The notes: a model not told the origin generated them from the sequence alone. A stretch of 64,000 nucleotides of DNA from a virus (IMGVR_UViG_3300035698_018653:1-64000); one strand, 5' to 3'; shown: positions 2,666 to 58,357, numbered from the stretch's first letter. Made by a program: numbers and translations.

Positions 2666-3266
2666 GTGCAAGCTTAAAAGTAATAGAAAGTCGAACGCTT
2701 GCAAGCTTGGTCTGTCCTGCACTCAGGTGGTTCTGGGTGCAGGCAGTACTAAGGCTAAGTATATGATACTGGGCGAAGCCCCAGGGCGTGACGAGGACAA
2801 AGCCGGTGAACCGTTTGTGGGTCCAGCCGGAGATTGGCTTAATAGATATTTTAAATTTTTAGGAATTAAAAGAGAAGAAGTATATATAACATATACCATA
2901 AAATGTAGACCCCATAGAATACTTAAGGTAAAATGGCAGGGAAGGAAAACCAGAAATCGTGCACCCAAAAGAGAAGAAACAAAAGCCTGTAGTGCTTGGT
3001 TAGATCACGAGATAAAAAAAGTAAATCCAAAAATTATTATTATTCTTGGTAGTCAGGCGCTGACCAGAATCACGTGTCATGAAGATGAACCTTTAACAAA
3101 GATAACTCATCATAATGGCAGATTAATTAAGACGAAAAAATATGGTTGGATCTTCGGGACAATGCATCCAGCCTGCCTTTTATATAGAAAAACTGAAAGT
3201 TTAACTATAATACAGAAAGATTTGAGAAGGTTGAAGAAAATAATAAAGGAAGGTATTGATGGCTGA
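2655..3266 (+). CDS. Uracil-DNA glycosylase, family 4 (Fe-S) / SPO1 polymerase N-terminal-like
   Basis: [20 protein letters not shown] and HPA motifs. The real start is probably ATG 2655; the upstream part of the listed ORF is an alternative frame of the SSB tail. Confidence 0.9.
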
Positions 3267-4308
3267 TAAGAAGAAAAAGAATAAAGAGAAAGTTAAAGAG
3301 AGGTCAAAGGAGAAAGACAGTTCAGTCACCAGTATAGTAAATGGTGTTTTTGGAGATGGAAGTATTTTTAAATTTAGTGACAATCCAATTAATGTAGAAT
3401 TTCTTTCTACAGGAATATATGATTTAGATATTGCTTTGGGTGGTGGAATTCCCAAAGGAAGAATTATAGAAATATATGGCCCAGAAGCAAGTGGTAAAAC
3501 TACATTAGCATTACATTTTATAAGGATGATGCAAGAGGCGGGAGGAGTTGCTGCATTTATTGACGCTGAGCACGCACTAGACCCTACCTGGGCAGCGGAT
3601 ATTATAAAAGTTGATATAGATAATTTATATATTAGTCAACCAGATTGTGGTGAAAACGCATTAGATATCGCAGAGACATTAGTTGGAACAAAAAAAGTTG
3701 ATATAATAGTCATAGATTCTGTCTCTGCATTGGTTCCCAGAAAAGAATTAGAAGGAGATATGGGTGATTCTCATATGGGACTTCATGCAAGATTAATGTC
3801 TCAAGCTTTAAGAAAATTATCTGGTATTACTCACGATAACAATGTAATAGTTATTTTTATAAATCAAATAAGAATGAAAATTGGTGTTATGTTTGGCAAT
3901 CCCGAAACAACTTCTGGTGGAAGAGCATTGGCTTTTTATGCTTCTCAAAGGCTTGATATAAGGAGAAAAAGTACATTAAAGGTTGGAGAGAAAAAGGTTG
4001 CTAATTTAACTGGAGTTAAAGTAGTAAAAAATAAAGTTGCACCGCCATTTAGATATTGTGAATATGAACTTAATTTTACAGAGGGAATAGATATAGATAA
4101 GGGTTTAATTTTAGCTGGATTAAATAAGGGAATAATAAAAATTAGAGATAAAGATAAGAAACATCATATAGTATACAGAAAAAAGAGTTTGGGGTTGTTT
4201 GGTCAAGCAAATATAAAGAAACTAAATAAAGAAAAAATAGCTACCGTAAGAGACGATATAATGAAAGAGCTAAAAGGAGAGAAAGGTGGAGGGAAAGTGG
4301 TGCTATGA
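3256..4308 (+). CDS. recA: Recombinase RecA
   Basis: GPEASGKTT Walker [42 protein letters not shown] and KNKVAPP. Confidence 0.98.
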
Positions 4309-5986: not shown

Positions 5987-8113
5987 ATGGATTTAATTAA
6001 ATTAGAAGCATATAATTTATTTTCCTATAGAAAGCTTGTTATAAATTTTTTTAAATATACTTTTTGTTTGATAACCGGTGTAAAAAATTCAGAAAGTGGA
6101 ACAAATAATGGAAGCGGAAAGTCAAAAATATTTGAGATTATAACTTGGATTCTTTTTGGAAAAGTTTCTTCGTTAGCGGTTAAGGGAAACGGAACCATAA
6201 AAGATGATGTTATCAGAGAGGGAAAAAATATAGGAAAAGGCAGGTTAATACTTAAAGATAATAAAGATAAATATATTATAACAAGAAAAAGAAAGCGTGG
6301 GAGCGCCGATATAATAAGATTTTATAAAAATGGAGTTAAGCAACACATTAAAGGCGAAACCCAAAAGAAAATAATTGCTATGTTAGGAACAGATTTTAAT
6401 TCGTTTACTTCGTCTGTATATATGCCACAAGAAATGATGTCTGCTTTCTGTTCGGGAACCAATTTAGAGCGTACAAAAATTATTCAGGGCGTTGTTCCTC
6501 AGATAAGCAATATGGATATTTTAAGGTCTGTTATTTCAGATGAGAAAAGCAAGATAGATAAGGAGCTTGAGACATTTGACGTGGAAAGAAGGGTTTATGA
6601 TGAAGCCATGGAAGATATTAATATAAAAGAGCAAAAGAAACAGCTTATGATTTCTTCCGACAAGGTTGAATGTTTTTCCGATAAAATAAAGAAAAATACT
6701 ATTTTGTTAAACTCTATAGAAAGTAAAATAAAGCTCAATAAAGAGCTTTTTGAGACAAAAGAACGCAGGGAAGATCTAAGAATTGAGGCGAAGTCTCGAC
6801 ATAAAAGGTATGCCGATAGTTTAGAAAAGAATAAAGATGAATTAGGCGGTATGAGTGTTGTTAAAAAGAAAGTAAAATTAGAGAGTAAAAGAAACTCTCT
6901 TGATGCTTTATCAAAAAAGGAAGAGAAGCTCAATAAAGAAATAGATACTAATATTGCAGAGACTCAAAGTATAATTGTTAATGATAAGTTTCTTGCTAAG
7001 CAGATATTGAAAAGAAAGAGGCGTTTAGGCATGAAAGATGACGTTAAATTTTCTCCTAGTCAGAAAATGGAAAAAATAAAAGTTCAATGTGATTCTTGTA
7101 TGATGTATCTCAATAAAGATGGCTTCCGCAGACTCATTAAAGACTCGATAGCAAAAGAAACAAAGCAGAGTAATGTTATTTTAGATAAGCAGAAAAAGCT
7201 TGACGAATACTCTAAGTTAATAGATAAAAAAAGAGAATTTGAGTCAAAAAGGTCTGAGTTTTTAGGTGATATATCGTCTTTAGAAATTGATATAAGTAGT
7301 CATAAGAGAATAACCGAAAAGCTCAAGGAGGTAATGTCTGAGATAAGGGAAAATATCAAGGTGTTGAAAAGGGATTTCAATATTGATAAAAAGAAGTATA
7401 AAAGTAAAATAAATAGTTTAGAAAAAACGCTTGAAAGATATAGGGATATAGACGATAGTGATTATGAAAATTTAAATAAAAAAAATAATAGCTATAACGA
7501 AAAGCTTGACAAATATAATACTGAATCTATTGAGATTCGTGCCGTTATAGCTAACTACAAAAGGAACCTGGAAAAGAGCGAGAGAATAAAGAAAAGTATA
7601 TCAAGGCTTTCTTCCGAAGCAGAGAGTTGTAAGTATTGGTTTGATAATATACCAAAGTTAAAAGTATATATGATTGGTAGTCTTTTGCCAGATATCAATA
7701 GGGGGATGAGAGATAGGCTTAAGAGAATGAGATTTAATTTTGACGTAAAGATAAAAATTGGCAAGGAAAGAAAGACGGGTAAAATTTCCGATGAGATAGT
7801 TACTGAAACTAGAAATTTGACAACCGGAAAATTAAGGCGTTGGGAGCTTATATCTGGTGGAGAAAAACAAAGGGTTGCTCTTGCAAATTTCCTATCCCTT
7901 AATGATGTATCTAAGTTTAATTTTATCTTTCTTGACGAAGTATTAAAAAGCCTTGATCCTGTAGGTAGGAAAATAGTATTGGGTTTACTTCATGACGAGT
8001 CGGTTAATAATAAAAAGATTTTCGTAATTGATCACCTTAATGACATAGAGTCTTCATTTAAGGAGAAAATAGTTGTGAGAAATAATGACGAGATAGCAGA
8101 GGTTGCAGCGTGA
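5987..8113 (+). CDS. sbcC: SbcC/Rad50-like ATPase
   Basis: NGSGKS Walker A, long coiled coil with a CDSC hook, ISGGEKQR signature, FLDE Walker B and an H-loop. Confidence 0.92.
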   Translation: MDLIKLEAYNLFSYRKLVINFFKYTFCLITGVKNSESGTNNGSGKSKIFEIITWILFGKVSSLAVKGNGTIKDDVIREGKNIGKGRLILKDNKDKYIITRKRKRGSADIIRFYKNGVKQHIKGETQKKIIAMLGTDFNSFTSSVYMPQEMMSAFCSGTNLERTKIIQGVVPQISNMDILRSVISDEKSKIDKELETFDVERRVYDEAMEDINIKEQKKQLMISSDKVECFSDKIKKNTILLNSIESKIKLNKELFETKERREDLRIEAKSRHKRYADSLEKNKDELGGMSVVKKKVKLESKRNSLDALSKKEEKLNKEIDTNIAETQSIIVNDKFLAKQILKRKRRLGMKDDVKFSPSQKMEKIKVQCDSCMMYLNKDGFRRLIKDSIAKETKQSNVILDKQKKLDEYSKLIDKKREFESKRSEFLGDISSLEIDISSHKRITEKLKEVMSEIRENIKVLKRDFNIDKKKYKSKINSLEKTLERYRDIDDSDYENLNKKNNSYNEKLDKYNTESIEIRAVIANYKRNLEKSERIKKSISRLSSEAESCKYWFDNIPKLKVYMIGSLLPDINRGMRDRLKRMRFNFDVKIKIGKERKTGKISDEIVTETRNLTTGKLRRWELISGGEKQRVALANFLSLNDVSKFNFIFLDEVLKSLDPVGRKIVLGLLHDESVNNKKIFVIDHLNDIESSFKEKIVVRNNDEIAEVAA

Positions 8114-46807: not shown

Positions 46808-47162
46808 TGAAGTTATGCTAGAGAGATTAAAGCTTAATCATTCGGTAATAATATCTAAAGACGCTATTGGTCAAGCAATGAAACCAATTTTTAATACATT
46901 ACCTGATCAGGACGCTATAAATATATTATTTAGAAATTACGTTGCTTCCGAAGTTCAAAAGAAAATTCAAATACAATACCCAAAGGATTGGTGGAATGCC
47001 TTTAAAGAAAGATGGTTTCCAAATTGGTTAAAATGGAGATATCCAGTTATATATAGAAAGCATGATTTTTCACCTAAAGTACTTTATCCTTTCATGAAAA
47101 TAAGTTTACCTAACGAAAGGCGGTTTCCAATAGTTATAGAATCAATAGAGGAGAAAGAATAA
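46788..47162 (+). CDS. Hypothetical phage protein
   Basis: AAGGAG RBS before ATG 46788; YPKDWWNAFKERWFP. Confidence 0.6.
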   Translation: MGKIKINEVMLERLKLNHSVIISKDAIGQAMKPIFNTLPDQDAINILFRNYVASEVQKKIQIQYPKDWWNAFKERWFPNWLKWRYPVIYRKHDFSPKVLYPFMKISLPNERRFPIVIESIEEKE

Positions 47163-47722
47163 TGACTTGTATAATTGGCTGGATTAAAAACAAAAAGATG
47201 TATATGGGTTGTGATAATATCGGCTCTAATGGGTCTATAGTTATACAAAGGAATGACAGTAAAATATTTACAAGAAATAACGAAATGATTTTTGGATATA
47301 CTTCATCTTATAGAATGGGTCAGCTTTTGAGATATTCGCTTAAGATTCCTTTGCATGATCCCAAGATACCTGATGACGAATATATGAGTACGAAGTTCAT
47401 CGATGAAGTTAGGAATTGCCTAAAAGATGGTGGCTATATGATTAGAGATAATAATGAGGAGTCTGGTGGAACATTTCTTGTTGGATATAAAGGTAAGCTA
47501 TATCTTATCTCTGATGATTTTCAAGTTGGAATTCCTTCTGATGGTTTTTTCTCCGTTGGTTGCGGAATGTATTATGCATTAGGGGCAATGAAAGTTCTTG
47601 TAAAATCAAATAAAAATCCAGTGGCGATAATAGAGGAGGCGTTGTCTATCGCAGAATATTATAGCCCCGGTGTTCGTGGACCATACCAGATAGATCACTT
47701 AGATATAGGGGAGAAAAAATAA
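47162..47722 (+). CDS. Ntn-hydrolase, HslV/proteasome-beta-like peptidase
   Basis: N-terminal MTCI (Thr nucleophile), GCD, K and VGCG..YALGAM. Confidence 0.75.
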   Translation: MTCIIGWIKNKKMYMGCDNIGSNGSIVIQRNDSKIFTRNNEMIFGYTSSYRMGQLLRYSLKIPLHDPKIPDDEYMSTKFIDEVRNCLKDGGYMIRDNNEESGGTFLVGYKGKLYLISDDFQVGIPSDGFFSVGCGMYYALGAMKVLVKSNKNPVAIIEEALSIAEYYSPGVRGPYQIDHLDIGEKK

Positions 47723-48693
47723 TGAAAAGAGTTTTAGTTACAGGTGCCAGCGGGTTCGTCGGGTCACACTTACTTGACTTACTTCTTGACGATATTGATT
47801 GTTCTGAATGTGAAGTTCACGGTACAATGAGGTACAGGAGCAATCTTGATAATATAAAACATAACATAGGAAAAGATTGCCTTAAGCTGCACACCTGCGA
47901 TTATACAGATCAGAAGTCTGTCGATGAGCTTATTAAGGAGGTTAATCCACATAAGATATTTCACCTGGCAGCTCATTCCTTTGTTCCTGATTCGTTTCAT
48001 ATGCCTCACTATATGCTTGATAATGTAAAGATGACTTTAAATATTTTGGAGTCGGTTAAAACGCACGCTCCAAATTGTAAGGTACATATCGCAGGTAGTT
48101 CCGAGGAGTATGGGATGGTAGAAGCAAGCGAATGCCCTATTGACGAAACGCAACCATTAAGGCCGATGTCACAATATGGTGTCTCTAAAATTGCTTGCGA
48201 GTATCTTGCTTTTCAATATCAAACAACTTATAATATAAAGGTAATAGTAACCAGGAGTTTTAATCATACTGGACCACGCAGAAATTCAAGATTTGTTTGT
48301 AGTCATTTTGCTCGTGAGCTTGCACTTATGAATATGGGCAAGAAAGCGTATTCGATAGAGCATGGCAATCTTGACGCTATACGTGACTATACAGATGTAA
48401 GAGATATAGTAAGGGCGTACTGGGATTTGTCTGAACTTGAAGAAGAAATTAAATATCCAATTAATCTTTGTAGCGGTAAAGGACATAAGATAGAAGAAGT
48501 ATTAAATATGCTTCAGAGTATGTCGGGCATTTCCCCTCAAAGGAATTGGGTTGAGAGCAGGATGAGACCCTCTGATGTTCCGTTGCTTGTTGGTAGTAGT
48601 GAGAAAGCAAAGATGCTTATAGGGTGGAAACCGGAAATTAATTTTAAGAAAACATTAGAAGATCTATATGATTATTGGCTTGAGAACGTATAG
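47722..48693 (+). CDS. gmd: GDP-mannose 4,6-dehydratase/RMD-like SDR
   Basis: VTGASGFVGS, HLAAHSFVPDSF, GSSEEYG, YGVSK, FNHTGPRR and GNLDAIRD. Confidence 0.85.
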   Translation: MKRVLVTGASGFVGSHLLDLLLDDIDCSECEVHGTMRYRSNLDNIKHNIGKDCLKLHTCDYTDQKSVDELIKEVNPHKIFHLAAHSFVPDSFHMPHYMLDNVKMTLNILESVKTHAPNCKVHIAGSSEEYGMVEASECPIDETQPLRPMSQYGVSKIACEYLAFQYQTTYNIKVIVTRSFNHTGPRRNSRFVCSHFARELALMNMGKKAYSIEHGNLDAIRDYTDVRDIVRAYWDLSELEEEIKYPINLCSGKGHKIEEVLNMLQSMSGISPQRNWVESRMRPSDVPLLVGSSEKAKMLIGWKPEINFKKTLEDLYDYWLENV

Positions 48694-48708
48694 TTAATAA
48701 AATAATTT

Positions 48709-48737
48709 TTCAACTTTTTAAATATAGTGTATATTGT
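48709..48737 (+). promoter_or_regulatory. Putative promoter TTCAAC-17-TATTGT for the NAD/TerY-P operon
   Basis: Same architecture as 32334 and 61798. Confidence 0.55.
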
Positions 48738-48776
48738 TTATAGATAACATTTAACCTTTTAAAAAGGAGAAGCAAG

Positions 48777-49577
48777 ATGAAAGAAAGTACTTGTTTGTTT
48801 GTAATTGACCCTCAAGTTGACTTCTGTGACCCCGTAGGAAACTTATTTGTACCGGGAGCAGACGAAGATATGAGGCGTTTATCGTCAATGGTAATAAATA
48901 ATAAGGGAGAGATAGATGATATTCAGTTGACTCTTGACTCCCATCACTATGTCCACGTGGCGCATCCTTGCTCGTGGATAGACAGTAAAGGAAAGCATCC
49001 TGACCCGTTTACAGTTATTACAGTAGAGGACGTTGAGAAAGGAACGTGGATGGCAACTAATCCTGGGTTCAGAGATAGATATAAGGAATACGTACAGAAG
49101 CTTCAGGACAATAATCGATACGTACTTTGTATCTGGCCTTATCATTGCCTTATTGGTAGCCCCCATGCCGCTATCTCTCCTGATTTTTACGCCTCCATGA
49201 TTTCCTGGGAACGTCTGTATGCTGTAGCCGGAAAGACCACTAAGGGTTCAAATATATTTACCGAGCATTACTCTGCTGTTAAAGCAGACGTACCGGATGA
49301 CGAAGATGTAGGAACTCATTTAAATACCGATGGGCTGATTAATGTTTTAAAGAAACACGATAGTATCCTTATAGCTGGAGAGGCACTGTCACATTGCGTG
49401 GCCTCTACCATTAGAGATATAGCTTCTGAGTTCTCTGACGAGCAGGTTAAGAAGTTTGTCTTGCTTGAGGATGCTTCGTCACCCGTTACCGGTTTTGAGA
49501 AGTTGGGAGAGGATTTTGTAAACGATATGGTTGCGAAAGGAATGAGAATTTCCAAAACAACTGAATATTTTAAATAG
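48777..49577 (+). CDS. pncA: Nicotinamidase (isochorismatase family)
   Basis: IDPQVDFC, DSH, WPYHCLIG, KG and AGEALSHCV (catalytic D/K/C plus metal-binding His). Confidence 0.85.
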   Translation: MKESTCLFVIDPQVDFCDPVGNLFVPGADEDMRRLSSMVINNKGEIDDIQLTLDSHHYVHVAHPCSWIDSKGKHPDPFTVITVEDVEKGTWMATNPGFRDRYKEYVQKLQDNNRYVLCIWPYHCLIGSPHAAISPDFYASMISWERLYAVAGKTTKGSNIFTEHYSAVKADVPDDEDVGTHLNTDGLINVLKKHDSILIAGEALSHCVASTIRDIASEFSDEQVKKFVLLEDASSPVTGFEKLGEDFVNDMVAKGMRISKTTEYFK

Positions 49578-49587
49578 GAGATTGACC

Positions 49588-50352
49588 ATGAAATTAATGA
49601 ATGTAGATGCAAGCGAAGTGGCGAAGTCGGTACAGGGTTTTGATTATAGCCACATTGAGTTTGATAAGTTAGGCGCTCCAGAATATACCATTGTTGCTAT
49701 CGTTACAGATAAGTCAGGTTCAGTATCGGAATTTAAAACTGAGCTGGAGAATATTAATAAGACTTGCGTGGAGTCCTGCCAGAAATCTCCCAAAGCGGAG
49801 AACTTACTTATTCGGTCCACCGCTTTTAATGGTATTGACGGAATAGAGGAGCTTCACGGCTTTACATTACTTTCTGCTATTGATATTAATCAGTATGACG
49901 GAAGTATTGAGGCGGACGGTATGACTCCGCTCTATGACGCAACTCTTGACGGTATAGATACCGTTCTTGATTATTCAAAGAAGCTGTATGACCGTCAGTA
50001 CTTTTGTAACGCAATAGTATTTGTTATTACCGATGGCATAGAGAACAGTTCGCACTCTGGTTCTGTTTCTAAGATTAAAGATGCCATTAGTAAAATAAAG
50101 AAAGGAGAGATGCTTGAGTCTTTTACTTCTGTACTAATCGGAGTGGGGACGGAAGACGATCAGGTCAAAGATTTCCTGGAGAATTTTAATAAGGAAGCCG
50201 GCTTTGATCAGTATGTAGAAATTACAGAAGCAACCCCACAGAAGCTTGCCAAGCTTGCGAAGTTTGTAAGCCAAAGTGTTTCCAGTACGTCGCAAGCTCT
50301 TGGAACGCAAGGCCCGTCTCAGCCTATTGATATTAAAACCGTAACTATCTAA
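49588..50352 (+). CDS. vWA-domain protein (TerY-like)
   Basis: MIDAS DKSGS, GMTPLYDA and ITDG.EN.S. Confidence 0.85.
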   Translation: MKLMNVDASEVAKSVQGFDYSHIEFDKLGAPEYTIVAIVTDKSGSVSEFKTELENINKTCVESCQKSPKAENLLIRSTAFNGIDGIEELHGFTLLSAIDINQYDGSIEADGMTPLYDATLDGIDTVLDYSKKLYDRQYFCNAIVFVITDGIENSSHSGSVSKIKDAISKIKKGEMLESFTSVLIGVGTEDDQVKDFLENFNKEAGFDQYVEITEATPQKLAKLAKFVSQSVSSTSQALGTQGPSQPIDIKTVTI

Positions 50353-51152
50353 TGAATTCTAATTCGTATTTTGAGATTGGATCTTCTCACCTGATCTGCC
50401 AGGACTATGCTCTTTCTGGTAGGTCAGGTGATGGGGGTCTTCAGTATGGGATTATATCTGATGGTTGTAGTTCGTCAAAGCATTCGGAAGTGGGCGCTCA
50501 GATATTATCTTTTGTAGCAAAGTATTGCGTAACACTTTTATACCCACGTATGGATTTCTTAGGGGAGACACTAAGAGATTTTATAATTGATAGGGTAGAA
50601 AAGTTAAGAGCGCTTTATGGTTTACCGGAAGAAGCTCTTGACGCAACTTTATTTATTGTTATTTATGCCGATGGTTTCTGGAGTGTATTTGGTTGGGGTG
50701 ACGGTACAGTTATAATTGAAAAACCATTTGGCGTAGTCAATATTGAAATGATAGAGTACAAACAAAACGCACCTTACTATCTTTCTTATTTGAGAAATTG
50801 CGACAGAAAAGAAAGATATATGAAAGAGTTTAATGATAACAATATAATTCAATCTAGTTATGGTACCTTAAGTACTCCCAGTAAAGTTGAAAGACATGTT
50901 GAAGCTCCATTCTTTTATTCGACTGCTGACGACGAAATTAAATCGATAACTGTTTGCTCAGATGGAATATCAAGTTATATAGACGAATTTGCAAATCCTG
51001 TTGGTATTTTTAAGATGGCCCATGAATTTATTGGTTTTAAAAGAACTAACGGAGAATTTGTTAAATCAAATATGATGTTTCTTAAAAGAAAGATGGAGAG
51101 GGAAGGGATTCAGCATTATGACGATATAAGTTGCGCAACGGTAACGTTATGA
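50352..51152 (+). CDS. PP2C-like protein phosphatase
   Basis: GSSH..CQD, ISDGCSS, GDG, CSDG and DDIS. Confidence 0.88.
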   Translation: MNSNSYFEIGSSHLICQDYALSGRSGDGGLQYGIISDGCSSSKHSEVGAQILSFVAKYCVTLLYPRMDFLGETLRDFIIDRVEKLRALYGLPEEALDATLFIVIYADGFWSVFGWGDGTVIIEKPFGVVNIEMIEYKQNAPYYLSYLRNCDRKERYMKEFNDNNIIQSSYGTLSTPSKVERHVEAPFFYSTADDEIKSITVCSDGISSYIDEFANPVGIFKMAHEFIGFKRTNGEFVKSNMMFLKRKMEREGIQHYDDISCATVTL

Positions 51153-52846
51153 GCAAATCAATAAAAGTATTCCGTAAGGGTAAGCAACCATTAACGCTTA
51201 CCGAGAATCACTATAAGGGTGGTGGTGGAGAGGGAGCAGTATACAAAAGAGATAGATATGCTTATAAAATATATCATGATCCTTCAAAGATGATTTCGGA
51301 AGATAAAATAAAAGAACTTAAAAAGATAAAGAGAAAGAATGTTTTAAATCCTATTGATATTTTATACAATAGCAAAAATAAGCCTATTGGGTTTATGATG
51401 AATTATGTCAAAGATACAGAATATCTTTGTAAATTATTTGTTAAGAACTTTAAAGATCAAAATGGAATTTCAACATCTAATATAACAAATATAGTAATCG
51501 AGATGGAAAAAACATTATCCGATATACATAAATATAATATGCTGGTAGTTGATTATAATGAAATGAATTTTCTGATAGATAAGAAATTTAGTATTCCTTA
51601 TTATATAGATGTAGATTCGTGGCAGACTAAAGATCATAAAGCAAAAGCTTTGATGGAGACAGTTAGGGATAGGGTAACGAAGTATGGAGAGTTTACCGAG
51701 CTGACTGATTGGTTTTCGTTCGCTGTAGTAACGTTCCAGCTTTATACTGGTCTTCACCCTTATAGGGGCGGCAGACACCCTAATTATAAGCCTAGAGACT
51801 GGTCAAAGAGGATGGATGACAACGTATCGGTATTTAATAAAGATGTAGCGCTTCCAAAATTTATACCAAGCTTTTCTTTTATACCAAAGAATTATCTTGC
51901 ATGGTATCAGGAGATATTTGAAAAGAAAGTAAGAAGCGCACCCCCTTCTGTAGCTGGGACAGTTTCTATGCCTTCGATAGTGGTAAAGGTTTCTGGAAAT
52001 GATATATTTGATATTGAGTTATTAGGAAGCTTTACCGGAAATATAAAAGGCGTTTATTATATCGATGGAAATAGATATATAATGACAAATAAGAATGTAT
52101 ATTTTAATACTGACAATAAAACAATATTTACTTTCGGTAGCGATATAAAAAACATAAGGGTGGGAATGGCTTCTATATTTAATGATACATCTCCCGTTAT
52201 CGCATATATAAAAGATACTCAATGTATTTTTCTTGACCTACGGAGAACTTATCAGACCGCTATATTGGCAGATGATTTTATGGAAGCTAACAATGCAATA
52301 TATACGGTACATGGTGGCAAGCTTATAGAGAATACGTTTGAGAAGTTTGGAAAGATAATTCATAAGACCAAGAATGTATGCAATATATATGAGAGCGCAT
52401 ACAAAGTATTTGACAGTATTGTATCTCAAGATATTATGGGTACATGTTGGCTTGCGATTCCGTATGATATAGGTAAATGTGCTCACGTAAGAATGAAAGA
52501 GCTAGACGGATATAGAATTATTGACGCTAAGTATTGTAATCGAACTGCCGTTATTATCGGAGAGAAAGCAGGACTTTATAATCTCTTTACAATATTCTTT
52601 TCTAAAGATGGTCATTCTGTATATGATATAAAGAAAGATGATGTAAGTTATCATTCAATAAATTTTGTAAGAAAAGATGAAGCTTGTGTACTTATAGACA
52701 ATGAAAAGATGACTTTATTTGTTGATAATATAGGCAGGAAGGAACTAAAAAATCCACCACTTGATCTTTCAATGAAAATGTATTGTGAAAATAGCGACGT
52801 TATGTTTGCTAATGAAAATAAACTTTATAAAGTGAGGATGAAATGA
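51149..52846 (+). CDS. Ser/Thr protein kinase (TerY-P type) with a C-terminal beta-rich domain
   Basis: GGGGEGAVY, AYKIY, VDYNEMNFL, IDVDSWQ and DWFSFAV..FQLYTGLHPY. Confidence 0.88.
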   Translation: MSKSIKVFRKGKQPLTLTENHYKGGGGEGAVYKRDRYAYKIYHDPSKMISEDKIKELKKIKRKNVLNPIDILYNSKNKPIGFMMNYVKDTEYLCKLFVKNFKDQNGISTSNITNIVIEMEKTLSDIHKYNMLVVDYNEMNFLIDKKFSIPYYIDVDSWQTKDHKAKALMETVRDRVTKYGEFTELTDWFSFAVVTFQLYTGLHPYRGGRHPNYKPRDWSKRMDDNVSVFNKDVALPKFIPSFSFIPKNYLAWYQEIFEKKVRSAPPSVAGTVSMPSIVVKVSGNDIFDIELLGSFTGNIKGVYYIDGNRYIMTNKNVYFNTDNKTIFTFGSDIKNIRVGMASIFNDTSPVIAYIKDTQCIFLDLRRTYQTAILADDFMEANNAIYTVHGGKLIENTFEKFGKIIHKTKNVCNIYESAYKVFDSIVSQDIMGTCWLAIPYDIGKCAHVRMKELDGYRIIDAKYCNRTAVIIGEKAGLYNLFTIFFSKDGHSVYDIKKDDVSYHSINFVRKDEACVLIDNEKMTLFVDNIGRKELKNPPLDLSMKMYCENSDVMFANENKLYKVRMK

Positions 52847-53583
52847 AAACTAAAGATCAAATAGTTTTTTGGCTTAAACAAATGTTAATTAAAACAAAGA
52901 AAGATGGGTATGTAGTGGGTTTAAGTGGCGGTATTGATTCGGCGGTTGTTGCTTGTTTAATAAAGGAAGCCGTTCCTGAAAATAGCCTTGGAATTATAAT
53001 GCCATGTTTAAGCGATATATTAGATAAAAATTATGCAGTAAAATTAGCAAATCAAATAAATTTAAGGTATTCAATAAAAGATTTAGAAAGTACCTATTAT
53101 CATTTTATAGGAGAAATCGAAGGAGATGGATTAAGGTCCGATGGGTATAATACAATGCTTGGCAATATAAAAGCAAGATTAAGGATGACAACATTATATC
53201 ACACCGCTTCTCTACATAATTATCTTGTGGTTGGCACCTCTAATAAAACAGAAATTTATCTTGGTTATTATACTAAGTATGGAGATGGTGGAGTTGACCT
53301 TGAGCCGATAGGGGATTTATTAAAGAGAGAAGTATATGAACTTGGTAATTATTTTAATATACCTCCCGAAATACAAATAAGAAAACCTTCTGCTGGATTA
53401 TGGGAAGGACAAACAGATGAAGATGAGTTAGGCTTAAGTTATGAGATAATGGATAAGTTTGTAGAGAAACATCCAACAAGAGAATTAAAAGAATGTGATA
53501 GTATAAAGCTTTGTAATTTAAGAATGAATTCAATTCATAAAAGAAATACGCCTGAAATTTGTACCATTAAAAAGGAGTTATAA
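52843..53583 (+). CDS. nadE: NH3-dependent NAD+ synthetase
   Basis: GLSGGIDSAV, NIKARLRM, GTSNKTE, GYYTKYGDG and PSAGLWEGQTDE. Confidence 0.96.
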   Translation: MKTKDQIVFWLKQMLIKTKKDGYVVGLSGGIDSAVVACLIKEAVPENSLGIIMPCLSDILDKNYAVKLANQINLRYSIKDLESTYYHFIGEIEGDGLRSDGYNTMLGNIKARLRMTTLYHTASLHNYLVVGTSNKTEIYLGYYTKYGDGGVDLEPIGDLLKREVYELGNYFNIPPEIQIRKPSAGLWEGQTDEDELGLSYEIMDKFVEKHPTRELKECDSIKLCNLRMNSIHKRNTPEICTIKKEL

Positions 53584-53584
53584 A

Positions 53585-54703
53585 ATGATTATGCCTGATG
53601 ATCACAAACCGTATATTGATTTATATTTCTTAAGGGCAAAAGAGATACTACAGAAGGAGGGATTAAACCCAATAGTAAGGGCTAAAGTATTTATTAGAAA
53701 AGTAAAAGATGGAAGTAATCAGGTTTATGGAATAAATGAAGCAGTTGATATTATAGATAGATATAGTAATTTATTTAAGAATGGCGGTAAGGTTTATGCT
53801 CTTGCCGAAGGGTCTGAGTATTACTCTAAAGAAACTATTATGATTTTAGAGGGAAGGATACAAGATTTTATTGATTTAGAAACAATGTATTTGGGGGTTA
53901 TTAGCTATAATACAACAATGAAGAATGACAGCAGACATGTTGATATAGATAAAGTAAAAACAAACGCAAAAGAAATAGTTGACGTTGTTGAAGGTAGACC
54001 AATTACGTATATGGGGCCAAGGCACTGGCATTATATTTACGATTATGATATTACAGAAGCCGCTTTAAGTGGTGGATTTACAAATTGTTCTACGTATAAT
54101 GGTTCAAGAGAAAAAGTTGTTGGAACAATTCCCCACGCTCTCGAAAATATTTATGCCTGGAAGTACGGAAAAGAAAATGCAGTATTAACTTCCACACTTG
54201 CTTTTGATAGACATATGAATATAGATATCCCCAGAATAGCGTTAGTTGATTATAACAACCGGGAAATAACAGATTCATTGGTTTGTGCTTATGTTTTAAA
54301 AGATAGACTATCCGGTGTAAGGGTCGACACTTGCGGCGAGAATCACATGGAAGATATTGGCGCTGGCCCTGACGAACTCGCTATTACTAGTGGAGTTTCT
54401 GTAAGGGGAGTATATCAGTTAAGAAAGAAATTAAATGAAGTAGGTTTTAAAAATATTAAAATAACTCTTTCAAGTGGATTTGGAGATATTGAAAAGGTAA
54501 AAAGTTTTATAGAGGCAGAAAAGTATTTTGGGGTTAAGCTATTCGATTCTTTAGGGGTTGGTGGATTGTTCGAATCAAGAATGGCTACCATGGACATATT
54601 TGAAGTGGGGGAAAATCTTAATCGCATGAAATTGATAAGCAAAGAAGGCAGAGAGATAAATGATCCTAGTATTCCTTCAGAATTAAAGGAAGTAAAAATA
54701 TAA
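53585..54703 (+). CDS. pncB: Nicotinate phosphoribosyltransferase-like (type II PRTase)
   Basis: DLYF, LETMYLG, GPRH, GTIPHAL, LVDYNN, GVRVDT, SSGF and GVG. Confidence 0.8.
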   Translation: MIMPDDHKPYIDLYFLRAKEILQKEGLNPIVRAKVFIRKVKDGSNQVYGINEAVDIIDRYSNLFKNGGKVYALAEGSEYYSKETIMILEGRIQDFIDLETMYLGVISYNTTMKNDSRHVDIDKVKTNAKEIVDVVEGRPITYMGPRHWHYIYDYDITEAALSGGFTNCSTYNGSREKVVGTIPHALENIYAWKYGKENAVLTSTLAFDRHMNIDIPRIALVDYNNREITDSLVCAYVLKDRLSGVRVDTCGENHMEDIGAGPDELAITSGVSVRGVYQLRKKLNEVGFKNIKITLSSGFGDIEKVKSFIEAEKYFGVKLFDSLGVGGLFESRMATMDIFEVGENLNRMKLISKEGREINDPSIPSELKEVKI

Positions 54704-54883: not shown

Positions 54884-55291
54884 ATGTCTTTAAAGATTCA
54901 AAGAAAAATAAATAGATGGAATAGAAGTAATGTTAGCTTAAGTGTGCTCTGCCCTTCTGATTTAAAAAAAGATACTCGTATATATAAACCTCAAAAAGCA
55001 ACACTATTAGATAAATGTATTATACCAAAATTAAATTCCTCTTTATTTGATTGGCAGAAGTGGAGAGCAAATTCAATACATTCTCTTGGATTTATAGCAT
55101 GCAGATATAGATTTATAGTTTCTGTTTACGGTAAGTATATATTAAAGAAACATGCTGTTGGATATTGTGAGGGAGAGAATCTTGCATGTCGTCCAAAGCT
55201 TTATGAAATAGCCTTAATGTGTTTTAAAGATGGAGGGGAGTTTTGGTTTCATATGAGAAGCAATGAATTCGAAGAGGTATTTTGTAATTAG
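54884..55291 (+). CDS. Hypothetical protein
   Basis: 135-aa ORF. Confidence 0.55.
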   Translation: MSLKIQRKINRWNRSNVSLSVLCPSDLKKDTRIYKPQKATLLDKCIIPKLNSSLFDWQKWRANSIHSLGFIACRYRFIVSVYGKYILKKHAVGYCEGENLACRPKLYEIALMCFKDGGEFWFHMRSNEFEEVFCN

Positions 55292-55304: not shown

Positions 55305-55377
55305 CGGGGTGTAACTCAGCGGTTAGAGTGCCTGTCTGATATACAGGTGGTCGGTGGTTCAATTCCATCCATCCCGA
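55305..55377 (+). tRNA. tRNA-Ile(GAT)
   Basis: Acceptor stem CGGGGTG/CATCCCG, anticodon arm CCTGT-CTGATAT-ACAGG and T-loop GTTCAATTC. No encoded CCA. Confidence 0.92.
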
Positions 55378-55398: not shown

Positions 55399-56370
55399 AT
55401 GAAGTTAGAGGATATAGGGTTTTATACATTATCGGATCAGAGGGCAAAGGGGGCTTCCGAAGTTTCTAACTTAAAGCGCTGTGAGCTTATACTTACAGAT
55501 AGATGTAATTTTAAGTGTACTTATTGCCGAGGCATAAAGAAAGAATATCAGGGTGATCTTGACTTTAAAGAAGCAGAAAGAATTGTAAGTTATTGGCTGG
55601 ATAACGAATTAGAGAATATCCGGTTCAGCGGTGGAGAGCCAACACTGTATCAGGGGCTGAATGAGCTTGTTGAGAGGTGTAAATTCTGTGGGGTTAAGAA
55701 TATAGCCGTGTCCACTAATGGATATTCTGAAATGGACGTATATGAAAGATTAATAAAAGATGGAGTAAATGATTTTTCAATATCTTTAGATGCTTGTTGT
55801 TCTGTTATAGGAAACGAAATAAGTAATACTAAGGGTAGCTGGGAGAAAGTTGTTGATAATATAAGGAAGCTTTCAAAGCTAACATATGTTTCTGTCGGTA
55901 TGGTATTTACAGAAGAGAATATTGACTCTTGTGTTGAGAGTGCATTATTTGCAGATGGTCTTGGTGTTTCCGATATTCGTATTATTCCTTCTGCTCAATA
56001 TAACGAAGCTTTAATAATGCTTGCAAAATTACCAGAGGATATATTAAATAAATATCCTATTTTAAAATACAGAATAAACAATATAAGAAACGGAAGACAC
56101 GTAAGGGGAATACAAGAAAGCGATTGTAATAAATGTTGGTTAATGATGGATGATATGGCTGTAATGAAAGGATTTCATTTTCCATGTATTATATATTTAA
56201 GGGAAGGTGGAGAGCCAATAGGGAAGGTGGGCGAGAATTGCAGGAAAGAAAGAGTCAAATGGATAATGGATAACAACACAAAAGAAAATATTATATGTAA
56301 AAATAATTGCCTTGATGTTTGTATTGATTATAATAATAAAGTTGAATCTTTTAACAAGGAGTTAGTATGA
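55399..56370 (+). CDS. Radical SAM protein
   Basis: CNFKCTYC, FSGGEPT, STNG and ISLD, with additional C-terminal Cys residues. Confidence 0.92.
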   Translation: MKLEDIGFYTLSDQRAKGASEVSNLKRCELILTDRCNFKCTYCRGIKKEYQGDLDFKEAERIVSYWLDNELENIRFSGGEPTLYQGLNELVERCKFCGVKNIAVSTNGYSEMDVYERLIKDGVNDFSISLDACCSVIGNEISNTKGSWEKVVDNIRKLSKLTYVSVGMVFTEENIDSCVESALFADGLGVSDIRIIPSAQYNEALIMLAKLPEDILNKYPILKYRINNIRNGRHVRGIQESDCNKCWLMMDDMAVMKGFHFPCIIYLREGGEPIGKVGENCRKERVKWIMDNNTKENIICKNNCLDVCIDYNNKVESFNKELV

Positions 56371-56870
56371 AAGATACGATTTTTATTCATTATGGTCATA
56401 ATGAATTTAATAAGAGTAAATTTCAAAATATAAGTAATGATGGTGCTTGGATAAAGCCCAAAGGGGGGCTATGGGGTTCTCCCATTAACTCTAGTTGGGG
56501 TTGGAAAACTTGGTGTAAAGAAAATAATTTTCAAGATGATGATTTTTCTATTTATTTTGAATTTAAATTAAATATAATATATAGCAATGTTCTTGTTATA
56601 AATTCTTATGGCGATATGCTTAAACTTCCTTGGAAAAATGTCAAATACAGTGATAAAATTAAACGTATTGATTTTGAAGAAATAAATCGATGGTATGATG
56701 CTATTTATTTAACAGAAAATGGACAAAGAGAAACACACTTACCTAAATTTACAGTTAAAGACTATAAGATTGATCATTTTAAAAATCTTTACGGGTGGGA
56801 TTGTGAAAGTGTATTAGTTATGAATCCAAATATAATAGAGGAGTTAAAAAATGAAAAGTGTTATAAGTGA
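56367..56870 (+). CDS. Conserved hypothetical phage protein
   Basis: KPKGGLWGSP, YDAIYLT and LYGWDCES. The H...S...E pattern could be ART-like, but this is unverified. Confidence 0.5.
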   Translation: MKDTIFIHYGHNEFNKSKFQNISNDGAWIKPKGGLWGSPINSSWGWKTWCKENNFQDDDFSIYFEFKLNIIYSNVLVINSYGDMLKLPWKNVKYSDKIKRIDFEEINRWYDAIYLTENGQRETHLPKFTVKDYKIDHFKNLYGWDCESVLVMNPNIIEELKNEKCYK

Positions 56871-58071
56871 TGTTGTAAATGGAAGTCATCTTCCAATAAA
56901 ATTATGGTTAGATAAAGACAAGATAGAAGAAAAAGCATTAGAGCAAGCAAAGAATTTAGCAAGACTCCCTTTTGCTTTTCGTCATATAGCAATTATGCCT
57001 GATGCTCATGTTGGTTATGGAATGTGTATTGGCGGTGTCGTAGCATGCAAAGGTGTAATAATTCCCTATGCTGTTGGTTATGATATTTCATGTGGTATGA
57101 TAGCTGTTAAAACTTCTTTAAAAGAAATAGATAAAGAAACCATAAAGAAAATATTTGGAGGAAGTAGTAAGTATAAGGGAGGGATAAGAAGTTGTATTCC
57201 GGTAGGTAGGGGTCATCATAGTAAAGCACAAGATGAAAGATTTATGCCCAGTGAAGAAATGTTTATGCCTGATTTTCATAACGAAAGAAGTATTTGCGAA
57301 GAGCAATATCAATCTGCTAGAAAACAAGTAGGCACTATGGGGTCAAATAATCATTTCATAGAAATACAAAAAGGAGATGATGGATATATTTGGATTATGA
57401 TTCATTCTGGAAGTAGAAATATAGGATATAGAGTTGCTGATCATTATAATAAAATTGCCGTTAAGTTAAATGAAAAATATTATTCTCAAGTTCCTAAGAG
57501 TTGGCAATTAGCTTACCTTCCTTTAGATTCAAAAGAGGGGCAAAGGTATAAAAAAGAAATGGAGTACTGTATCGAGTTCGCTAATTGTAATAGACAATTA
57601 ATGATGGAAAGAGCAAAAGAATGTTTTAATGAAATAGTTCCAGAAGTAGAATTTACAAATATAACAAATATAGATCATAATTATGCTTCTATGGAGAATC
57701 ATTTTGGTGAAAACGTAATGGTTCATAGAAAGGGGGCTACATTAGCGAGAGCAGGAAAGACCGGAATTATACCTGGTAGTATGGGCACGAAAAGTTATAT
57801 AACCGAAGGACTTGGTAATCCAGAAAGTTTTATGAGTTGCTCTCATGGTGCTGGTAGGGTTTTAAGTAGAACTAAGGCAAAGGAAGATTTAAATTTAAAT
57901 GAAGAAAAAAAGAAGATGGACGATAAGGGAATTATACACAGTATAAGAAATATAAAAGATTTAGAAGAAGCGTCATCAGCTTACAAGAATATTGACGAGG
58001 TAATGGAGAATCAAAAAGACCTCGTAAAGATACTAGTAACTTTAAGTCCACTAGCAGTTATAAAAGGCTAA
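56851..58071 (+). CDS. rtcB: RtcB RNA-splicing/repair ligase
   Basis: MPDAHVGYG, VGYDISCGM, GSNNHFIE, HSGSRN, HNYA, HRKGAT, PGSMG, SCSHGAGR and AYK. Confidence 0.96.
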   Translation: MKSVISDVVNGSHLPIKLWLDKDKIEEKALEQAKNLARLPFAFRHIAIMPDAHVGYGMCIGGVVACKGVIIPYAVGYDISCGMIAVKTSLKEIDKETIKKIFGGSSKYKGGIRSCIPVGRGHHSKAQDERFMPSEEMFMPDFHNERSICEEQYQSARKQVGTMGSNNHFIEIQKGDDGYIWIMIHSGSRNIGYRVADHYNKIAVKLNEKYYSQVPKSWQLAYLPLDSKEGQRYKKEMEYCIEFANCNRQLMMERAKECFNEIVPEVEFTNITNIDHNYASMENHFGENVMVHRKGATLARAGKTGIIPGSMGTKSYITEGLGNPESFMSCSHGAGRVLSRTKAKEDLNLNEEKKKMDDKGIIHSIRNIKDLEEASSAYKNIDEVMENQKDLVKILVTLSPLAVIKG

Positions 58072-58095
58072 TGCTAATGAGAACAATAAATAAAT

Positions 58096-58167
58096 TGTCA
58101 GGTACCCAAGTGGTAAGGGGACTGATTGTTAATCAGTTTGTCGCAAGTTCGAATCTTGCCCTGACAG
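58096..58167 (+). tRNA. tRNA-Asn(GTT)
   Basis: Acceptor stem TGTCAGG/CCTGACA, anticodon arm ACTGA-TTGTTAA-TCAGT and GTTCGAATC. Confidence 0.92.
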
Positions 58168-58175
58168 TAAAAATA

Positions 58176-58249
58176 ACCCGATTGGTCTATTGGATGGGCG
58201 CATGGCTACGGACTATGTTAGAGGGGTTCGATTCCTCTATCGGGTACCA
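58176..58249 (+). tRNA. tRNA-Arg(ACG)
   Basis: Acceptor stem ACCCGAT/ATCGGGT, anticodon arm CATGG-CTACGGA-CTATG, GTTCGATTC and an encoded CCA. Confidence 0.88.
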
Positions 58250-58257
58250 AATTTAAT

Positions 58258-58333
58258 CGTGGTGTGGCGAAGCCTGGTTCAACGCACCGGATTTTGGGTC
58301 CGGCACTCGCAGGTTCGAATCCTGTCACTACCG
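58258..58333 (+). tRNA. tRNA-Gln(TTG)
   Basis: Anticodon arm CCGGA-TTTTGGG-TCCGG, GTTCGAATC and G73, with a C1:C72 mismatch. Confidence 0.82.
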
Positions 58334-58357
58334 AACAATTTAACAGAGGGGGAATAA

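Follow-up and report, generated by a model that had tools for sequence, protein, structure and literature searches.

A large salt-lake phage with a six-gene operon of predicted NAD+ salvage enzymes and a vWA-PP2C-kinase trio

A six-gene operon in a large tailed phage

The stretch of DNA analysed here (the window, 64,000 nucleotides) is the first 64 kb of the 126,906-bp IMG/VR virus record IMGVR_UViG_3300035698_018653. Towards its end lies an operon of six plus-strand open reading frames (ORFs), whose predicted products are a nicotinamidase, a von Willebrand factor A (vWA) protein, a PP2C-type phosphatase, a Ser/Thr kinase, the nicotinamide adenine dinucleotide (NAD+) synthetase NadE and a nicotinate phosphoribosyltransferase (PRTase). 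The operon and the spacer before it comprise the following features (aa, amino acids):

48694..48776, + strand: AT-rich spacer of 83 bp, a candidate promoter that is plausible only
48777..49577, + strand: PncA-type nicotinamidase, 266 aa, isochorismatase-like fold (from catalytic residues and the family profile against Pnc1)
49582..50352, + strand: vWA protein with a metal-ion-dependent adhesion site (MIDAS), 256 aa, probable start ATG 49588, conserved Ser-rich C-terminal tail (from MIDAS residues and fold neighbours)
50352..51152, + strand: PP2C-type Ser/Thr phosphatase, 266 aa (PP2C_2, E 1.8e-11)
51131..52846, + strand: Ser/Thr protein kinase (N-terminal ~280 aa) followed by a beta-propeller-like domain (~285-571), probable start ATG 51149 (from Pkinase and Atlas)
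52843..53583, + strand: single-domain NAD+ synthetase NadE, 246 aa, without a glutaminase domain (PF02540, TIGR00552, phrog_11189)
53585..54703, + strand: archaeal-type type II PRTase, 372 aa, predicted nicotinate PRTase (from NCBIfam and the family profile)

The first two genes lie 4 nucleotides (nt) apart and the last two 1 nt apart, and at the three junctions in between the genes overlap by 1, 22 and 4 nt, in that order; the PP2C/kinase overlap shrinks to 4 nt when the kinase is started at ATG 51149, as its Atlas record suggests. These coordinates, with gaps and overlaps of 1-22 nt, confirm the claim of an earlier note, made from the window alone, that the six co-directional genes are tightly coupled.

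The record, estimated to be 74% complete and lacking terminal repeats, is from a large tailed phage of a salt lake. Almost all ORFs of the window lie on the + strand, and among them are genes for a UvsX-like recombinase, an SbcCD-like nuclease and a single-stranded DNA-binding protein; the second half of the record holds portal, minor head, tape-measure, DnaB-like and other helicase genes, together with a weak match to the large terminase. Searches of the phage's own genome for Terminase_6N and an NAD-dependent ligase gave no match, and neither did a search for Gp23, which is uninformative because the Gp23 control also matched nowhere. That the contig might be cellular, a possibility which the earlier note had raised, was rejected on the evidence of the portal, tape-measure, minor head, UvsX-like and SbcCD-like genes.

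An assembly chimera was likewise rejected. Contigs from four salt-lake metagenome DNA runs (X1-X4, of which X1 may be the sample from which the window was assembled) were compared with the window and match it with 0 differences, spanning all five gene junctions: PncA/vWA and vWA/PP2C in X1 only, PP2C/kinase in X1 and X4, kinase/NadE in X2 and X3, and NadE/PRTase in X1, X3 and X4. Because all five junctions are bridged, three of them in runs besides X1, the gene arrangement is not an assembly artefact. Among the runs listed as containing the operon, none is an RNA run.

Predicted products of the six genes

The first gene is predicted to encode a nicotinamidase that converts nicotinamide to nicotinate and NH3. 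The profile of its family matches yeast Pnc1 (PDB 2h0r) at 5e-16, 8 of its 10 PDB matches are named nicotinamidase or pyrazinamidase, and many of the homologues bear a precomputed PF00857 assignment; the window protein scores 18.1 against NF008623, below the cut-off of 174. Both the Asp-Lys-Cys triad (D11/K156/C207) and the metal site (D54/H56/H123) are invariant in 57/57 relatives, and the W120-P121-x-H123-C124 stretch (WPxHC motif) is conserved. In alignment with 2h0r the triad residues fall on its DxQxDF, KG and CV motifs, under what we take to be the Pnc1 residue numbering. In the second alignment of this family two loci with internal stops (L058, L088) were left out, and two others (L087, L170) were already off the locus list. 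Some huge phages carry two paralogous nicotinamidase copies a few kb apart, as in L010 (8001-8831 and 13478-14398) and L012 (10001 and 14694).

The vWA protein of the window has no Pfam match, and PF00092 matches 21 of 59 members of its family. Its MIDAS residues D43, S47, T115 and D151 are invariant, and the fold neighbours of its Atlas model (pTM 0.84) are VWA. The tail (residues ~225-245) is Ser-rich and highly conserved, with S230, S232 and S237 invariant in 59 sequences (L087 and L170, with internal stops, were left out of the alignment), and is the likeliest phospho-site, a candidate target of the adjoining kinase and PP2C. Across 61 sequences the phosphatase keeps the Asp motifs D18, D37-G38, D117, D204 and D257-D258 without exception. 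The Pkinase match of the window kinase (E 8.4e-6) is below the Pfam cut-off; G32, G33, K46, D141, N146 and D160 are invariant among its 61 relatives, and its C-terminal ~285 aa are beta-propeller-like, with Atlas structural neighbours that include Beta_propel, Reg_prop and DUF5711. To judge by these residues, all three members of the trio should be catalytically intact.

The identity of NadE is unambiguous, with 221.2 bits (E 1.5e-65) against PF02540 and 225.1 bits against TIGR00552 (cut-off 63.65), and the enzyme is predicted to be NH3-dependent, producing NAD+ from nicotinate adenine dinucleotide (NaAD), NH3 and ATP. The product of 53585 is predicted to be a nicotinate PRTase that substitutes for classic PncB. 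It matches NCBIfam equivalog models for this activity at 1.6e-42 (NF006415) and 2.6e-39, both below their cut-offs, scores 135.2 against NF005529 (below the cut-off of 378) and barely reaches that of Pfam QRPTase_N (27.8 vs 27). A profile of 32 sequences matches only nicotinate PRTase-type structures, namely 2i14 (5.8e-33), 1ytd (3.6e-9) and 2f7f (3.9e-3); identities as Namat, NAMPT or quinolinate PRTase were rejected, the profile having no NAMPT or quinolinate PRTase match at E <= 0.01. At E <= 0.001 the family has 772 clusters, some of the proteins coming from Methanolapillus contigs of chromosome length, and in two loci (L035, L040) archaeal-type relatives stand in PncB's place in the same cassette.

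Taken together, the identities that the earlier note had given to the six products are borne out: the nicotinamidase by the family profile to Pnc1 and the invariant triad and metal site, the vWA, PP2C and kinase proteins by their invariant MIDAS, Asp-motif and catalytic residues, NadE by PF02540 and TIGR00552, and the nicotinate PRTase-like enzyme by the profile to known structures.

Gene linkage in relatives and the flanks of the operon

An alignment-based scan for the nicotinamidase yielded 177 relatives from viruses and, from contigs of cellular genomes, at least 589 stretches. In the first 10 viral loci, vWA, PP2C and kinase genes occur in the same order in 9, NadE in 2 and an archaeal-type PRTase in 0. 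Recurrent neighbours confirmed by Pfam are classic PncB, NadE and a fusion of a NadM-like domain with NUDIX (NadM-Nudix). Genes within 10 kb of PncA were counted in 80 viral and 80 cellular loci, many of the cellular ones on short contigs:

vWA: 73/80 viral, 56/80 cellular
PP2C: 71/80 viral, 42/80 cellular
Kinase: 71/80 viral, 45/80 cellular
Full trio: 69/80 viral, 38/80 cellular
PncB: 28/80 viral, 20/80 cellular
NadE: 17/80 viral, 2/80 cellular
NadM-Nudix: 18/80 viral, 6/80 cellular
Archaeal-type PRTase: 2/80 viral, 0/80 cellular

When the viral loci were reduced to 67 non-redundant clusters, the trio was present in 58, a PRTase in 25, NadE in 15 and a PRTase together with NadE in 10. Anchored on the kinase instead, 80 viral loci contain PP2C in 80, vWA in 74 and the nicotinamidase in 74, four of the six nicotinamidase misses being cut by contig ends. 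The tightest link is that from nicotinamidase to vWA, which are adjacent in 53/73 viral and 53/56 cellular loci, and the usual order is (NadM-Nudix) PncA vWA PP2C kinase (PncB) (NadE); in 7 loci PncB comes after PncA and no triad gene was detected. No other genes accompany this nicotinamidase as constantly as the vWA-PP2C-kinase trio, and the idea that its members are bystanders is not borne out. The synteny that the earlier note proposed to survey does recur, the PncA-like gene standing beside classic PncB, NadE and NadM-Nudix genes in relatives.

Very large phages are overrepresented among the carriers of the module. Among GenBank phages, a DNA-level search returned only short NadE-like stretches and one nicotinamidase-like stretch, and a protein search found the nicotinamidase in 4 GenBank records only; all four are uncultured, and no cultured phage with the nicotinamidase cassette was found in these searches.

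Nor is the cassette specific to phages: Armatimonadota, Pyrinomonadaceae and Thiotrichaceae carry it on their chromosomes as an operon. In 8 of 10 cellular loci the gene right after the kinase is PncB. On a complete Capsulimonadaceae chromosome, pncA-vWA-PP2C-kinase-pncB lies among leuA/leuB and genes for a serpin, a PAS histidine kinase and an MFS transporter; five complete chromosomes of this family each have exactly one NAPRTase-family gene, and in 4/5 it is the cassette's own. In a tree of 152 nicotinamidases (9 of 161 rows were dropped by a length and X filter), the Pyrinomonadaceae, Armatimonadota and Thiotrichaceae form coherent clades and the cellular clades track taxonomy, while viral rows and scattered rows from metagenome-assembled genomes interleave, with 18 label changes, at least 4 of them forced, vs ~50 in shuffles. 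The window nicotinamidase groups with viral rows.

Several smaller observations concern the NAD genes of relatives. An IMPDH/GMP-reductase-family gene adjoins the archaeal-type PRTase in L001 (5308-6429) and the nicotinamidase in L011 (9196-10239); around the IMPDH-like gene of L001 are two ORFs of ~420 aa (2864-4132 and 6434-7687) that by eye resemble TnpB of the IS200-605 type. In the records of L007 and L008 (G007 and G008), 15-17 kb separate the nicotinamidase module from a 526-aa protein with a weak NAPRTase-family match and from a NadE whose 660 aa would leave room for a glutaminase fusion.

Upstream of the operon, the spacer holds TTTTCA-N17-TATATT (48707-48735) and an AAGGAG ribosome-binding site (48764-48769). 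It also carries TGTATATT at 48728-48735, a one-mismatch variant of the 8-mer CGTATATT. The latter recurs as CGTATATT(AT) ~15-45 nt upstream of gene starts, at positions 826, 32353, 61817, 68081, 71950, 74324, 109776 and 123432 of the record (window coordinates up to 64000), and is a candidate phage promoter element because the 8-mer, found in 6/38 intergenic regions, occurs just twice within genes. The operon's own promoter, which the earlier note had asserted, is therefore plausible only: the motif variant and the ribosome-binding site speak for it, and sigma-70-like matches, with 25 found vs 38.2 +/- 6.3 expected, do not rise above shuffles.

Directly before this spacer (47162-48693), two genes encode an HslV-like peptidase (phrog_1040) and an epimerase resembling GDP-mannose 4,6-dehydratase; 2/80 viral loci have an HslV homologue close to the module. 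Just downstream of the operon lie a 135-aa ORF (54884-55291), a tRNA-Ile gene (55305-55377) and a radical SAM gene (55399-56370) with MoaA/viperin-like matches. Homologues of the radical SAM gene and the 135-aa ORF stand immediately upstream of the kinase in L249 (8390-9599), and in L060 the kinase has a radical SAM homologue ~2 kb downstream; the module may have in these two genes one more, loosely attached partner. Beyond them are an RtcB RNA ligase gene (56851-58071), homologues of which also lie near the module in related loci (L009, L019, L034, L040, L057, L070), and a cluster of tRNA-Asn, Arg and Gln genes (58095-58334).

Predicted NAD+ salvage, its possible control and the alternatives

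We put at roughly 60% the probability that what the phage carries here is a copy of a conserved cassette whose genes serve a regulated, Preiss-Handler-type salvage of NAD+. In such a pathway the nicotinamidase would deamidate nicotinamide to nicotinate, with release of NH3, and the type II PRTase (archaeal-type here, classic PncB in most relatives) would join nicotinate to phosphoribosyl pyrophosphate (PRPP) of the host, giving nicotinate mononucleotide (NaMN). Host NadD would convert NaMN to NaAD, unless the gene for this step is in the absent ~26% of the genome (relatives carry the NadM-Nudix fusion), and the NH3-dependent NadE would then amidate NaAD to NAD+. A deamidating route with an adenylyl step from the host fits because the PncA-like gene recurs beside PncB, NadE and NadM-Nudix in relatives. 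For the phage, the benefit might be a general supply of NAD+ or escape from NAD+-depleting defences.

Control of the pathway would fall to the unit formed by the MIDAS-bearing vWA protein, the PP2C and the propeller-bearing kinase, which is placed between the first and second enzymes. Because the trio appears catalytically intact and is tied to the nicotinamidase by gene order, we infer that it could be a reversible phosphorylation switch or a scaffold acting on the nicotinamidase step, with input through the propeller and, as target, perhaps the Ser-rich tail of the vWA protein or the nicotinamidase itself. A sharper version, in which the propeller detects NAD+ breakdown or a NADase effector and the kinase phosphorylates the vWA tail, so that nicotinamide is cleared and NAD+ resynthesized by the deamidated route on demand, we consider unlikely.

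Several observations weigh against regulated salvage. The phage's NAD set is incomplete, because neither an adenylyltransferase (PF01467, cytidylyltransferase-like NMNAT) nor a PRPP synthetase nor a Nudix protein was matched in the 126.9-kb record, ~74% complete, and tblastn with the NadM-Nudix and PncB proteins of relatives gave no match there; compared with a complete Preiss-Handler pathway (PncA, PncB, NadD, NadE), no NaMN adenylyltransferase is encoded in the record. The absence of NadD and NadM that the earlier note had reported for the window thus extends to the whole record, and its proposal to look in the rest of the genome for a NadD/NadM/NadR-type domain and PRPP synthetase has been followed, with neither found. 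The window nicotinamidase is by itself a weak match to PF00857 (E 0.0038; 17.8 bits vs a 27-bit cut-off), the PRTase scores 145.7 against NF006415 (cut-off 243), and substrate specificity is not readable from sequence. In viral loci the archaeal-type PRTase is rare, both a PRTase and NadE are found in only 10/67 clusters, and 34/67 lack any further NAD gene at up to 10 kb from PncA.

Three phage pathways for NAD+ reconstitution (NARPs) are available for comparison. NARP1 (Adps + Namat) and NARP2 (Nampt + Nmnat) rebuild NAD+ from the products of NADase defences, NARP2 also starting from nicotinamide; both are amidated, whereas the route considered here would pass through nicotinate and NadE. 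NARP3, as presented in PMC13464706 (2026), consists of PnuC and NadR, an import route for nicotinamide riboside, and like the present operon is a phage NAD+ restoring cassette of ordinary salvage genes. All three are amidated routes, and the signature genes of all three are absent from the 126.9-kb record: the PRPP synthetase-like Adps of NARP1 (no PF13793 match), Nampt and Nmnat of NARP2 (no PF04095, the NAPRTase/NAMPT family, and no PF01467 match), and PnuC and NadR of NARP3 (no PF04973 and no PF01467 match). The distinction that the earlier note drew from NARP1 and NARP2 therefore holds, and its description of a third type of reconstitution pathway has been overtaken by NARP3.

The deamidating, Preiss-Handler-like reading of the note is reasonable, given the enzyme identities and the PncB, NadE and NadM-Nudix sets of relatives, but it is no first. 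In PMC11662467 (2024), Preiss-Handler clusters of 'NAD-jumbo phages', such as pncB-nadD-nadE of Kuafu_71, and phage pncA genes were catalogued bioinformatically. Those clusters resemble the present one as phage-borne groups of pncB/nadE-type genes for deamidated NAD+ synthesis; they differ in that nadD is absent here, the PRTase is archaeal-type rather than PncB, and the NAD genes bracket the vWA-PP2C-kinase trio, the text of PMC11662467, supplements aside, mentioning kinase, phosphatase, vWA and TerY 0 times. Lists of viral auxiliary metabolic genes for the Candidate Phyla Radiation (CPR) and DPANN include pncA, pncB, nadM and nadE (PMC12647753), and the jumbo phage PA5oct is described in PMC7318152 as up-regulating the host pncA-pncB1-nadE operon of P. 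aeruginosa. Bacterial pncA-pncB-nadE operons of this kind have these three enzyme functions combined in a single transcription unit, as here; in the present operon, by contrast, the nicotinamidase belongs to a distinct subfamily of ~265 aa and a putative phospho-switch is embedded. The real novelty is the conserved nicotinamidase-vWA-PP2C-kinase core and the fact that, in several bacterial phyla as in huge phages, it is set between pncA and pncB. Literature searches found no paper on such an embedded switch (nicotinamidase with von Willebrand, PP2C and kinase), and nothing relevant for NARP4 or for a phage nicotinamidase with Thoeris.

Doubtful, yet the best placed of the alternatives, is a dedicated counter-defence role, in which the cassette would mainly rebuild NAD+ from the nicotinamide freed by SIR2/TIR NADase defences and so be a deamidating NARP. 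It would consume the same breakdown product as NARP2, the phage has no NARP1, NARP2 or NARP3 genes of its own, the module is concentrated in very large phages, and the published accounts of NARP2 and NARP3 show ordinary salvage enzymes defeating NADase defences. However, the cassette need not be an anti-defence device, because the same operon is chromosomal and holds the only nicotinate PRTase-family gene in 4/5 complete Capsulimonadaceae chromosomes. The route would moreover take four steps, cost ATP, depend on host NadD and PRPP, and recycle nicotinamide only, not ADP-ribose, and the NARP preprint mentions PncA, NadE and nicotinic acid 0 times.

We find it quite unlikely that nicotinamidase, vWA, PP2C and kinase form a sensor/effector module for signalling or conflict, used for instance in superinfection exclusion or in the sensing or removal of nicotinamide, with the NAD genes mere neighbours in an 'NAD island'. 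The comparison is with TerY-P, a triad of vWA, PP2C and a Ser/Thr kinase that is fused C-terminally to a zinc ribbon/OB fold, and TerY-P-like modules are stand-alone defences, according to PMC11090510 (citing Anantharaman 2012 and Gao 2020). The trio shares this architecture of adjoining genes, the MIDAS, phosphatase and kinase all being intact; any NAD synthesis partner is far less constant than the core (25/67 vs 58/67), and the family kinases match the defence-kinase models mad6 (29/61) and PD-T4-6 (25/61). Strict membership of TerY-P was nevertheless rejected: the C-terminus of the kinase is propeller-like, and the TerY-P models of the PADLOC library, which we take to contain them, matched no window protein (the PP2C included), 0/61 kinases and 0/59 vWA proteins. 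The partner here is, moreover, a nicotinamidase and not a restriction or tellurite-resistance gene. The position of PncB directly after the kinase in most cellular loci and the 7 loci in which PncA and PncB stand without a detected triad gene also argue against NAD genes as chance neighbours, and searches of the record for SIR2, a macrodomain and an NAD-dependent ligase gave no match, so that the phage has no SIR2 or macrodomain protein whose inhibition by nicotinamide would need relief.

Least probable is a different chemistry, in which the PRTase uses nicotinamide, quinolinate or ADP-ribose pyrophosphate (Namat-like) and/or NadE amidates NaMN to nicotinamide mononucleotide, the Francisella-type route, leaving a NadM-type enzyme to finish; the PRTase is indeed a divergent type II enzyme below equivalog cut-offs and relatives have NadM-Nudix fusions rather than NadD, but its profile finds nicotinate PRTase-type structures only, it takes PncB's place in the same cassette, the adjoining nicotinamidase would be pointless if nicotinamide were used directly, and the record has no Adps-like gene.

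NAD+ depletion is a major antiphage strategy, and of the three phage counter-pathways known, none is deamidating and none is regulated. There are many very large uncultured phages whose nicotinamidase is tied to a unit of kinase, phosphatase and vWA, often with PncB, NadE and the NadM-Nudix fusion. To our knowledge, how TerY-P-like triads work as defence or stress modules is so far a matter of hypothesis. If the trio does not control salvage, the finding is one more auxiliary NAD gene cluster of the catalogued sort. If it does, regulated salvage would give TerY-P-like triads a concrete, assayable output and would mean phospho-control of NAD+ salvage in several bacterial phyla; and were the propeller-gated switch true, it would be the first regulated phage pathway of NAD+ reconstitution and the first physiological output assigned to a TerY-P-like triad.

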